Shown: piece after piece, positions 41,811-47,644 of the stretch | Layout: every line of letters starts with the position of its first letter | Numbering within the stretch: position 1 is the stretch's first letter | Assembly (NCBI GenBank): GCA_016875915.1 | Contig: VGOM01000002.1 | Location: forward strand, 23,263 to 87,262 | From: Chloroflexota bacterium | GTDB taxonomy: Bacteria > Chloroflexota > Dehalococcoidia > UBA2247 > RBG-13-53-26 | DNA length: 64,000 nucleotides | Direction of reading: 5' to 3' | Made by a program: the position numbers and the translations under genes | The notes under the pieces: generated by a model | Told to the model about the DNA's origin: nothing | The model's database searches: none | Seen by the model: the letters and a program-made list of their open reading frames with translations, nothing else

Positions 41811-42857
41811 ATGGAACCGGTCGTTTGGCTCGGCGACGGCATCGAGATCGTTGATCAGACCAGGCTCCCCTGGGAGGAGGTCTGCCTTCGCCTGTCGACA
41901 TGCCAGGAGGTGGCCGCGGCCATCAACGAGATGAGGGTCCGGGGAGCGCCGGTGATCGGCATAGCAGCCGCCTATGGCATCGCGCTGGGAGCCCGGTCCA
42001 TCGAGGCGCCGGACAAGGAGTCGTTCCTGGCCGATCTGAGCCGCATGGCTGAGATGCTGGCCTGCACCAGGCCCACGGCGGTCAATCTCTTCAAGGCCAT
42101 CGACCGGATGCTGTCGGCGGCCGGCGGGGGTGGGGACGCGGCCACGATCAAGGCCTCGCTGGTGGCTGAGGCAGAGGCGATCCACGCTGAGGAAAGGGCG
42201 GCCACCAGAAGCATATCCCGACTCGGCGCTGAACTGATCAGGGATGGCTCCACCATCATCACCCACTGCAACGCCGGGCCGCTGGCCACCGGCGGGTATG
42301 GAACGGCCCTGGGCGTGATCATCGAAGCCAAGCGGCAGGACAAGGCGATTGCCGTCCTGGCCACGGAGACCCGGCCCCTGCTCCAGGGAGCACGGCTGAC
42401 CATGTGGGAGCTCATGCGGGAGGGTATTCCCGTCACGCTCATCACCGACTCCATGGCCGGCCATTTCATCAACAGAGGCGACGTGGACTGCGCCTTGGTC
42501 GGTGCCGACAGGATCGCCGCCAACGGGGACGTGGCCAACAAGATCGGCACCTATGCACTGGCGGTCCTGGCCAGGGAGAACGGCGTCCCCTTCTACGTTG
42601 CCGCCCCCACTTCCACGATTGACCTCTCACTGGCCTCCGGCGACGGAATCCCCATCGAGCAGAGGAGGCCCGACGAGGTGACCCTGATCCGGGGCATGTC
42701 AATTGCCCCCCAGGGGGCACCGGCAGCCAACCCCGCCTTCGACGTCACCCCGCACCGCTACGTCTCTGCCATCGTCACCGACAGAGGCATACTGCGGGAA
42801 CCCTATGTTTCCACCATACCCCGCGTCCTCAGCAGGGCGAGCACTACTGGCGGATAG
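41811..42857 (+). CDS. mtnA: S-methyl-5-thioribose-1-phosphate isomerase (eIF-2B alpha/beta/delta-like)
   Basis: MtnA family: conserved C...THCNAG and DRIAANGDVANKIGTY motifs. Confidence 0.85.
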   Translation: MEPVVWLGDGIEIVDQTRLPWEEVCLRLSTCQEVAAAINEMRVRGAPVIGIAAAYGIALGARSIEAPDKESFLADLSRMAEMLACTRPTAVNLFKAIDRMLSAAGGGGDAATIKASLVAEAEAIHAEERAATRSISRLGAELIRDGSTIITHCNAGPLATGGYGTALGVIIEAKRQDKAIAVLATETRPLLQGARLTMWELMREGIPVTLITDSMAGHFINRGDVDCALVGADRIAANGDVANKIGTYALAVLARENGVPFYVAAPTSTIDLSLASGDGIPIEQRRPDEVTLIRGMSIAPQGAPAANPAFDVTPHRYVSAIVTDRGILREPYVSTIPRVLSRASTTGG

Positions 42858-42872
42858 AGGAAGGAGGCCCCA

Positions 42873-43736
42873 GTGATTCAGGCCAGCATCGGCGTCATCG
42901 GAGGCAGCGGCCTCTACCGGATTGAAGGGTTGACCGACGTTGAACAGGCGGAGGTGAGCACCCCCTTTGGCGAACCCAGCGACCTCATCACCACGGGCAC
43001 CCTGCGCGGTGTCCGAGTGGCCTTCGTGCCCCGGCATGGCAAGGGACACCGCATCAGCCCGGCCGAGGTCCCGGCCAGAGCCAACATCTATGCACTCAGG
43101 TCCCTGGGCGTGGAACGGATCATCTCCATCAGCGCCGTGGGCAGCCTGAAGGAGGACATCCATCCCCTGGATCTGGTCATTCCAGACCAGATCATCGACC
43201 GAACCAGCAGCCGGGTGAACACCTTCTTCGGACAGGGACTGGTGGCCCACGTGGGACTGGCTGAGCCGTTCTGCCCCGACCTGAGCCGTCTCCTGTATCA
43301 GACGTCGCGGCAGGCGGGGGCAGTCGCGCACCAGGGAGGAACCTGCGTGGTTATAGAGGGCCCGTCGTTCTCCACCCGGGCGGAATCCTTCCTGTACCGC
43401 TCCTGGGGCGCCAGCATTGTGGGCATGACCGCCGTGCCGGAGGCCAGACTGGCCCGGGAAGCCGAGATGTGCTACGCCACTCTGGCCTTCGTTACCGACT
43501 ACGACTGCTGGCATCACAGTGAGGAGTCGGTCACGGTGGAGATGGTCGTAGCCAACCTCGAGCGGAGCGTGGAGGTGGCGAAGAACATCGTCAAGGCTGT
43601 GGTGGCCCAGATCCCCCGGCAGCGGGGCTGTGAGTGCGCCACAGCTCTCAGAGATGCTATCATTACCTCTCCGGAACAGATCCCGGCATACCTGAAGAAG
43701 GACCTGGATCTGCTGATCGGGAAGTACGTCAAGTAG
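42873..43736 (+). CDS. mtnP: S-methyl-5'-thioadenosine phosphorylase
   Basis: PNP/MTAP family: IGVIGGSGLY, RHG.GH and GMTAVPEARLAREAEMCYA. Confidence 0.88.
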   Translation: MIQASIGVIGGSGLYRIEGLTDVEQAEVSTPFGEPSDLITTGTLRGVRVAFVPRHGKGHRISPAEVPARANIYALRSLGVERIISISAVGSLKEDIHPLDLVIPDQIIDRTSSRVNTFFGQGLVAHVGLAEPFCPDLSRLLYQTSRQAGAVAHQGGTCVVIEGPSFSTRAESFLYRSWGASIVGMTAVPEARLAREAEMCYATLAFVTDYDCWHHSEESVTVEMVVANLERSVEVAKNIVKAVVAQIPRQRGCECATALRDAIITSPEQIPAYLKKDLDLLIGKYVK

Positions 43737-43748
43737 AAGGGATGAACC

Positions 43749-45078: not shown

Positions 45079-45096
45079 AACGAAAGGGGGGACTTG

Positions 45097-46368
45097 ATGA
45101 AACGAAAGACGGTCACTCCGGGCGATGTGAAGGATCGCTCACTGGCCCCAGAGGGCAAGCTGCGCATCGAGTGGGCATCCCGCGAGATGCCCGTGCTGCA
45201 GTTGCTCAGGGAACGATTCGGCAAGGCAAGGCCCCTTGAGGGGGCCAGGATCTCTGCCTGCCTGCACATCACCACGGAGACCGCCAACCTGGCTCTGACC
45301 CTCAAAGCGGGCGGGGCCGACCTGGCCCTCTGCGCTTCGAATCCTCTGAGCACTCAAGATGATGCCGCGGCTGCCCTGCTGGACTACGGCATACCGGTCT
45401 ACGCCATCAAGGGCGAAGACGGCGACACGTACTACAGTCACATCCGCTCCGCCCTGGCCCACAAGCCGCAGATAACCATCGACGACGGCGCCGACCTGGT
45501 CACGGCCCTGCACAAGACCAAGGGGGCCATCAACGCCAACGTCATCGGGGGTATGGAGGAGACCACCACGGGCATCATCCGGCTGCGCAGCATGGCCAGG
45601 GACGGGAAGCTGAAGTACCCCATCATCGCCGTAAACGACGCCGAGACCAAGCACTTCTTCGACAACCGCTACGGCACAGGCCAGAGCACCATCGACGGCA
45701 TCACCCGGTCCACCAATATCCTCTGGGCCGGCAAGAAGGTGGTGGTCTGCGGGTACGGCTGGTGCGGCCGGGGCATAGCCATGCGGGCGCGGGGCATGGG
45801 GGCCCAGGTCATCGTCACCGAGGTCAGCCCCGTCCGTGCCCTGGAGGCGGTAATGGACGGCTATCAGGTGATGCCTCTCCTCAAGGCAGCCAGGATCGGC
45901 GACGTGTTCATCACCATCACCGGCGGGCTGAGCATCATCGACCGGCCGCAACTACAGGTCATGAAGGACGGAGCCATCCTGGCCAACAGCGGGCACTTCA
46001 ACGTGGAGATCAGCATCCCCGCCCTGGCCAACCTGTCGGTCAAGAAGAGAGCCATTCGCCCCTACGTGGAGGAGTACACCCTCAAGAACGGCAGGCGCCT
46101 CTATCTCCTGGCCGACGGGAGGTTGATCAACCTGGCAGCGGCTGAGGGGCACCCGGCCAGCGTCATGGACATGAGCTTCGCCAATCAGGCCCTCTGCGCC
46201 GCCTACATGTTCAACCTCAAGAAGAGGATGCCCGCAGCGGTCTATCCCGTGCCGGCGCAGATCGATCAGGAAGTGGGCAGGCTGAAGCTGCGCTCTATGG
46301 GGATCAGCATTGACAAACTGAGCCGCCAGCAGGGACAATACCTCCAAAGCTGGGAGATGGGTACCTAG
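45097..46368 (+). CDS. ahcY: adenosylhomocysteinase
   Basis: Full-length SAHH with NAD-binding GYGWCGRG and the conserved HxTxE/DDGxD substrate motifs. Start at the ATG one codon inside the track ORF. Confidence 0.92.
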
Positions 46369-46399
46369 CCGAAGACACGCACTTGAAGGAGAAGCGACC

Positions 46400-47644
46400 A
46401 TGACTCTGACTTTCTCAAGATCTTCCTCATACATGCTCACTTCTGAATCCGTCACCGAAGGGCATCCCGACAAGGTATGTGACCTCATCGCCGACGCCAT
46501 TCTGGACGCTATCCTGGCCAAGGATCCCGTAGCCAGAGTAGCCTGCGAGGCCATGGCCACCACCGGCCTGGTAATCACCACGGGGGAGATCACCACCAAC
46601 TGCTACGTTGACATACCGCAGATCGTCAGGGATACGGTCTTGGAGATTGGCTACACCCGGGCCAAGTACGGCTTTGACGGCGAGACCTGCGGGGTGATCG
46701 CCTCCATCAAGGAGCAGTCCCAGGACATCGCTATGGGTGTCAACCACGCCCAGGAGTCGAAGCAGAAGACGGAGAACGCCAGCGACAAGGACGGCCTGGG
46801 CGCCGGCGACCAGGGGATGATGATCGGTTTCGCCTGTGACGAAACGCCGGAACTGATGCCGCTGCCCATCTCGCTGGCCCACAAGCTCTGCCGCCGTCTG
46901 GCTGAGGTGCGGAAGGACGGCACCCTGTCCTATCTGCGCCCCGACGGGAAGTCTCAGGTAACCGTCGAGTACAGTCACGGCGTTCCCAAGAGGGTGGACG
47001 CCGTGGTCATCGCGGCCCAGCACAGCGAGACGGCCAGCAACGACACCATCCATCGCGATATCCAGCAGATGGTGATCAAGAAGGTTATTCCCGCCCATTT
47101 GCTGGACAAGAAGACCAAGTACCATATCAATGCCACCGGCCGCTTCGTCACCGGTGGCCCCATGGGCGACACCGGCCTCACCGGGCGCAAGATACTGGTG
47201 GACACCTACGGGGGCATCGCCAGACACGGCGGCGGCTCCTTCTCCGGAAAGGATCCCACCAAAGTGGACCGCTCGGCGGCCTACTACGCCCGCTACGTTG
47301 CCAAGAACATCGTGGCCGCCGGACTGGCCAAGCGCCTGGAGATTCAGGTCTCCTATGCCATTGGGATCGCCCACCCCATCTCCATCTCCATCGAGACCTT
47401 CGGGACGGCCAAGGCAGACGAGGACCTGATCGTGAGCCTCATCAGGAAGCACTTCGACTTCCGGCCCAGCGCCATCATCGATTCACTGGGGTTGCGCCGG
47501 CCCATATACAAGCAGACCGCGGCCTACGGTCACTTCGGCCGGCCCGACCTGGATCTTCCCTGGGAAAGGACTGACAAGGTCGCCCTGCTCCAGGCCGACA
47601 TGGAGCTGGCCAAGGTCAGCGGCTCTCTCCAGAAGCAACCGTAG
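46400..47644 (+). CDS. metK: S-adenosylmethionine synthetase
   Basis: [20 protein letters not shown] and DTYGG...GGGAFSGKD motifs. GGAGAAG RBS. Confidence 0.92.

Follow-up and report, generated by a model that had tools for sequence, protein, structure and literature searches.

A probable MesB-type core methionine synthase in a compact methionine-cycle gene cluster of a Chloroflexota bacterium

How is homocysteine returned to methionine, and from which methyl donor, by the gene cluster at positions 41811-47644 of a stretch of 64,000 nucleotides (nt) from a Chloroflexota bacterium (contig VGOM01000002.1, assembly GCA_016875915.1)? This whole stretch is called the window below. The cluster consists of five open reading frames (ORFs), mtnA, mtnP, mesB, ahcY and metK, all on the + strand, and the third of them, mesB (43749..44777, + strand), encodes a protein of 342 amino acids (aa). 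Based on its match to Dehalococcoides mccartyi MesB, its ligands and its fold, this protein is very probably a MesB-type core, i.e., folate-independent, methionine synthase, with the methylated corrinoid iron-sulfur protein (methyl-CoFeSP) as its most likely donor. Through synthases of this type, anaerobes with the Wood-Ljungdahl pathway need neither methyl-folate nor MetH or MetE for methionine synthesis; these enzymes are often missed by annotation pipelines. The family, its chemistry and its gene neighbourhood are already published, and an identical protein already bears the name methionine synthase; the window adds one further MesB orthologue, from a GC-rich metagenome-assembled genome (MAG) related to the Dehalococcoidia. 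The only question that the window raises is the one that already stands for the whole MesB family, i.e., to prove directly which methyl donor serves in vivo.

Identity of the 342-aa protein

In the published definition of the family, a MesB protein scores at least 173 bits against D. mccartyi DET0516, and it also possesses conserved zinc ligands, an Asp replacing Glu665 of MetE, and a Ser and an Asp that bind homocysteine (Price et al. 2021, PMC7857596). The D. mccartyi reference used here was retrieved from metagenome contigs by means of the published forward cloning primer of cbdbA481 (PMC7005905), and it is a 343-aa protein encoded on metagenome contig L082 (465 kb, GC 0.48). This protein begins with MTKTDF, finishes with KHGTV, fits both cbdbA481 primers and contains the published residues S15 and W69; it stands in for the DET0516 record as a copy of D. 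mccartyi type. The window protein matches it with 354.5 bits (phmmer) and 48% identity over 341 aa (BLASTP). Along with a score above the published threshold, the window protein has the zinc ligands and the homocysteine residues, and it forms a single barrel without a folate domain. D. mccartyi MesB did not appear among the top 120 matches of two large homologue searches, where closer metagenomic sequences dominate, nor among the best 80 genome loci. Searches with the window protein gave more than 5000 homologues, including many Dehalococcoidia sequences that are 60-65% identical, and NCBI and JGI hold a 100% identical protein named 'MAG: methionine synthase [Chloroflexi bacterium]'.

The DEP, H-x-C and CGL motifs, which an earlier note on this DNA had pointed out, were found at residues 178-180 (D178-E179-P180), 215-217 (H215-C216-C217) and 310-314 (P310-S311-C312-G313-L314), respectively. 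The predicted zinc ligands are H215, C217, D236 and C312, and the predicted homocysteine binders are S16 and D178; all six share alignment columns with their counterparts in D. mccartyi MesB. Across 44 family representatives with 31-55% identity, H215, C217 and D236 never vary, and conservation reaches at least 90% at C312, D178 and S16. A global hhalign alignment of the profile built from these 44 representatives with residues 381-753 of Escherichia coli MetE (b3829; probability 84.5, E 7.8e-7) pairs S16 with S433, D178 with D599, H215 with H641, C217 with C643, D236 with E665, and C312 with C726. The local alignment with the same protein covers residues 118-184 only, the ligands being reached in the global mode. 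An Asp at the position of MetE Glu665 is a published feature of characterised MesB (PMC7857596).

The AlphaFold2 model of the 342-aa protein, with a predicted local distance difference test score (pLDDT) of 77 and a predicted template modelling score (pTM) of 0.80, presents a single domain of alternating strands and helices. When this model was compared with the PDB by Foldseek, the top 25 matches were all MetE (best E 1.7e-9), with template modelling scores (TM) of ~0.62 when normalised by the query and ~0.31 when normalised by the target; the protein therefore spans roughly half of MetE. Below the MetE structures followed an MtaA-like methyltransferase (4ay7, E 2.5e-6), a uroporphyrinogen decarboxylase (4zr8, E 5.3e-6) and MesD (3RPD, E 9.7e-6). 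Family membership, ligand conservation, fold and synteny were each observed for the window protein. The earlier note had proposed a MesB-type, core-MetE-like enzyme, and the identity to D. mccartyi MesB, the conserved ligands, the modelled MetE fold and the gene order all point to the same assignment.

Proposed reaction, methyl donor and rival readings

In the proposed reaction, the zinc site formed by H215, C217, D236 and C312 would activate or deprotonate the thiol of homocysteine, held by S16 and D178, and the homocysteine thiolate would then receive a methyl group from a methyl-corrinoid, not from methyl-tetrahydrofolate (methyl-THF). The D. mccartyi enzyme transfers the methyl group of methylcobalamin to homocysteine and does not use methyl-THF (PMC7005905), and it fails to complement an E. 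coli metE mutant (PMC7005905, PMC7857596). The in vivo donor would most likely be the Wood-Ljungdahl protein CoFeSP (AcsC/AcsD) in its methylated form, encoded in another part of the genome. In a published survey, AcsC or AcsD was encoded by every MesB-bearing reference proteome (123/123), and some methanogens have mesB in one operon with acsCD (PMC7857596). We infer the MesB reaction because the window protein is homologous to an enzyme assayed from D. mccartyi; which donor serves in vivo is also an inference. Within the cycle, MetK would convert methionine to S-adenosylmethionine (SAM), AhcY would convert the S-adenosylhomocysteine that is left after methyl donation by SAM to homocysteine and adenosine, and MesB would close the methyl cycle by turning homocysteine into methionine, while MtnP and MtnA would process methylthioadenosine, the other by-product of SAM.

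Several observations weigh against this assignment. The 342-aa protein has no Pfam match at E ≤ 0.01, Meth_synt_2 included, and no PDB sequence is matched by either the protein itself (phmmer) or a 16-sequence family profile; because the Pfam Meth_synt_2 and PDB sequence searches gave no match, its link to MetE rests on the fold, the weak profile alignment and the motifs. The assayed homologue is the D. mccartyi enzyme, and none comes from the GC-rich lineage of the window. In addition, no corrinoid protein, AcsB, AcsC, AcsD or other Wood-Ljungdahl gene was found among the 42 genes covered by Pfam and NCBIfam annotation (positions 1-50155), and the earlier note's remark that no corrinoid protein is encoded nearby holds for these genes. 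The same set includes no metH, metE or metF.

A corrinoid protein other than CoFeSP is an unlikely methyl donor. Neither the window nor the mesB-ahcY stretches of ten related loci, where genes were recognised by reading, show a CoFeSP gene linked to mesB, and some paralogues may use other corrinoid proteins according to Price et al. (PMC7857596). However, all 123 of the MesB-bearing reference proteomes had AcsC or AcsD (PMC7857596), labelling in D. mccartyi traces the methyl group of methionine to the methyl group of acetate, and no alternative corrinoid protein occurs among the annotated window genes either. Also unlikely is the reading that either the adjacency of mtnP and mesB reflects a functional coupling between methylthioadenosine salvage and MesB, or the lineage lacks CoFeSP and uses a different methyl carrier; mesB is tied more tightly to mtnP (63/64 loci) than to ahcY-metK.

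Two further readings concern the protein itself, and each is very improbable. The host belongs to the Chloroflexota, the phylum in which non-catalytic MesB-like paralogues were described (PMC7857596), and a protein of this Chloroflexales type would have another role. The described members, however, carry FSHG, YCDQ or YREQ at the zinc ligands (PMC7857596), whereas the window protein has H-C-D-C, and its gene stands in a methionine-cycle operon, as does that of the active D. mccartyi enzyme; membership of this subfamily was rejected on the presence of the H-C-D-C ligands. The other reading, i.e., a methylcobamide:CoM methyltransferase (MT2, MtaA-like) or a member of the uroporphyrinogen decarboxylase family, draws on the common barrel superfold, with 4ay7 (E 2.5e-6) and 4zr8 (E 5.3e-6) among the structural matches. 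Both of these are outranked by 25 MetE structures with E values ~1000-fold better, and TM is 0.57-0.63 for most MetE structures versus 0.48-0.51. Moreover, the protein has 48% identity to a methionine synthase that has been assayed, neither family appears in the Pfam or NCBIfam results, and the neighbouring genes serve methionine and SAM metabolism. The earlier note had named grouping with uroporphyrinogen decarboxylases or MT2 enzymes, and loss of the zinc triad, as outcomes that would speak against its proposal; the structural ranking and the ligand alignment gave neither, in agreement with a MesB-type synthase.

Gene order, spacer and neighbouring genes

The five-gene cluster stands exactly at the positions that the earlier note had given, and MtnA, MtnP, AhcY and MetK each score above their NCBIfam equivalog cut-offs. 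The first gene, mtnA (41811..42857, + strand), encodes S-methyl-5-thioribose-1-phosphate isomerase of 348 aa (Pfam IF-2B, E 4e-88; TIGR00512, 427 bits vs. a cut-off of 279) and is followed by mtnP (42873..43736, + strand) for S-methyl-5'-thioadenosine phosphorylase of 287 aa (Pfam PNP_UDP_1; TIGR01694, 323.6 vs. 274.85 bits). Downstream of mesB and a 316-nt spacer (44778..45093, + strand) lie ahcY (45094..46368, + strand), encoding adenosylhomocysteinase of 424 aa (Pfam AdoHcyase and AdoHcyase_NAD; TIGR00936, 628.5 vs. 497.6 bits), and metK (46400..47644, + strand), encoding methionine adenosyltransferase of 414 aa (three S-AdoMet_synt Pfam domains; TIGR01034, 575 vs. 309.4 bits). These are continued on the + strand (47666..50155) by a gene of the phosphoglucomutase/phosphomannomutase (PGM/PMM) family and a gene for a bifunctional phosphoglucose/phosphomannose isomerase (PGI/PMI), both with Pfam and NCBIfam matches.

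The intergenic gaps are 15 nt (mtnA-mtnP), 12 nt (mtnP-mesB), 316 nt (mesB-ahcY) and 31 nt (ahcY-metK), and those before the PGM/PMM and PGI/PMI genes are 21 and 3 nt, respectively. Because of these spacings, the cluster is suggested to form two transcription units, i.e., mtnA-mtnP-mesB and ahcY-metK, the latter continuing into the PGM/PMM and PGI/PMI genes, with the 316-nt spacer probably separating the two. A promoter and terminator scan of the methionine cluster gave counts at the level of shuffled sequence and was uninformative.

The grouping of mtnA, mtnP, mesB, ahcY and metK is not a chance juxtaposition. It was followed in the best 80 loci of GTDB representative species, of which almost all bear a Dehalococcoidia or Chloroflexota label. 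Here mtnP lies directly upstream of mesB in 63/64 informative loci (median gap 30 nt), mtnA lies upstream in 27/34 loci, and ahcY, in most cases with metK after it, is found downstream of mesB on its strand in 21/31 loci (median gap 2.8 kb). The D. mccartyi-type contig L082 has mtnA-mtnP-mesB, a 531-aa kinase-like gene, and then ahcY-metK on one strand; it was from the neighbourhood of metK (cbdbA476) and ahcY (cbdbA477) that the core-MetE of D. mccartyi was originally found (Deobald et al. 2020, PMC7005905). The closest relatives, loci L001 and L002 (74% MesB identity), have the same compact arrangement as the window and share its flanks, i.e., a pair of family-III CoA-transferases before the cluster and PGM, PGI and rpsI/rplM after it. 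In the window, an acyl-CoA dehydrogenase gene and the two tandem family-III CoA-transferase genes (37948-41664) are divergent and upstream of mtnA, and all three recur on the JGI contigs bearing the identical MesB. The order ahcY-metK-PGM-PGI followed by rpsI/rplM on the opposite strand (window 47666-51075) is also found in L001, L004, L010, L012 and L032. This block is kept in distant Dehalococcoidia, and the methionine-cycle operon is therefore anchored beside the ribosomal-protein region in this class; the remainder of the window beyond 50155 is a ribosomal-protein operon. The PGM/PMM and PGI/PMI genes are part of the conserved syntenic block and lie outside the methionine cycle.

The interval between mesB and ahcY is where the window departs from most of its relatives. 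In the ten loci inspected, the genes read from the sequence of this interval are kinase-like, PHP-domain and small P-loop NTPase-like ones, and none was recognised as corrinoid-related. The P-loop NTPase-like ORF (~172 aa, THEP1-like by reading) follows mesB in most Dehalococcoidia (L009, L010, L011, L028, L034, L042, L053, L065) and is itself often followed by a kinase-like protein of 330-530 aa with the motif 'VELVQTQMSFVFLT', which is also encoded in L082 (1590-3185). The spacer of the window partly aligns with those of the two closest relatives (L001:6830-7240 and L002:4869-5212). Many other Dehalococcoidia encode PHP-domain proteins ahead of ahcY. When the spacers were searched with a profile of these proteins, the relic in L001 was significant (E 1.2e-6), those in L002 were marginal and frameshifted, and the signal in the window's own spacer was insignificant (E 0.55). 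Because of the relic in the L001 spacer, the compact arrangement is probably a derived state that arose through gene loss, and the same is suggested for the window itself, whose 316-nt spacer may be a decayed remnant of the genes that sit there in relatives. The contiguous 'supercluster' of the window is thus probably a compacted form of the usual arrangement. A riboswitch in the spacer was also considered and rejected: there was no Rfam match at the gathering threshold in the window and ten related loci, or at E ≤ 10 in the spacer, and the spacer does not fold better than shuffled sequences (z +0.73).

Elsewhere in the window, several modules belong to hydrogen metabolism. An Mvh/Vhu-type NiFe hydrogenase (large and small subunits and MvhD) accompanied by a GltD-like Fe-S flavoprotein lies at 9964-14686 (- strand), and a set of HdrB/C-like, HdrA2-like and MvhD proteins lies at 17276-20874 (+ strand), the HdrA2-like protein scoring 851 bits against NF040770. 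The genes for a Hox-like bidirectional NiFe hydrogenase, some of them unusual fusions, are clustered at 27409-35128 (+ strand). They encode a HoxE-like protein of 188 aa; a 1051-aa protein in which a NuoF/HoxF module is joined with a thioredoxin-like 2Fe-2S domain and a GltD-like NAD(P)H-binding module; a HoxU/NuoG-like protein of 659 aa that includes a molybdopterin-oxidoreductase domain; a HoxY-like small subunit (33135-33671, recognised only by reading the sequence); and a Vhu/Mvh-type large subunit. The window thus has two MvhD homologues and two Vhu/Mvh-type NiFe hydrogenase large subunits in total. Between a response regulator gene and the Hox-like cluster lies a 139-aa ORF (26874-27293, + strand) whose composition resembles that of coding sequence and which matches neither Pfam nor NCBIfam. 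The Hdr/Mvh genes are electron-bifurcation machinery typical of strict anaerobes, and the hydrogenase and Hdr modules, judged from their sequences, are consistent with a strictly anaerobic, H2-metabolising host. A lifestyle of this kind agrees with the ecological profile of organisms that carry MesB.

Comparison with known methionine synthases

MesD/MesX, the aerobic and oxygen-dependent system (PDB 3RPD), has the same superfold as the window protein and was reached by Foldseek at rank 28 (E 9.7e-6, query-normalised TM 0.44, 260 aligned columns). Membership of this group, which would call for close similarity to ACIAD3523 or 3RPD and a DUF1852 gene next door, was rejected, with no phmmer match to PDB chains including 3RPD, no DUF1852 (MesX) among the neighbouring genes, and a host that looks anaerobic. 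MesC is delimited by a score of at least 38 bits against M. acetivorans Q8TUL3, and membership is very unlikely because the window protein is 48% identical to MesB, while the four families are less than 30% identical to one another (PMC7857596).

The methanogen MesA is a single-barrel, corrinoid-dependent homocysteine methyltransferase, as is proposed for the window protein. The sole NCBIfam match of the 342-aa protein is to NF002119 (PRK00957), which we take to be the model of the methanogen MesA-type methionine synthase, with 29.6 bits over residues 119-336; the cut-off of 258 bits is missed, and MesA membership was rejected on this basis. MesA occurs in methanogens only and is predicted to use MtrA (PMC7857596).

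MetE provides the best structural neighbours (E. coli b3829; structures from Thermotoga maritima, Neurospora crassa and Candida albicans), and the ligands of its C-terminal barrel align with those of the window protein. However, MetE is a protein of ~750 aa with an N-terminal folate-binding Meth_synt_1 barrel, whereas the window protein is half that size and lacks this barrel, has Asp where MetE has Glu665, and exhibits no phmmer or Pfam similarity to MetE that could be detected. A canonical two-barrel MetE was rejected for this protein, which at 342 aa matches neither Meth_synt_1 nor Meth_synt_2 nor TIGR01371.

The closest known system is MesB of D. mccartyi (cbdbA481, DET0516). The two proteins are of nearly the same length (343 aa vs. 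342 aa in the window), have the H-C-D-C ligands and the Ser/Asp pair in the same columns, and neither has a folate domain, whereas the window protein lacks the W69 of D. mccartyi MesB. The operon order mtnA-mtnP-mesB ... ahcY-metK is also the same. D. mccartyi has the 531-aa kinase-like gene between mesB and ahcY, and most Dehalococcoidia encode a small P-loop NTPase-like, a kinase-like and a PHP-domain protein there; the window lacks these and has the 316-nt spacer instead. GC content also differs, at ~62% in the window vs. 48% in the D. mccartyi-type contig. The differences from the D. mccartyi enzyme are at the level of orthologues only.

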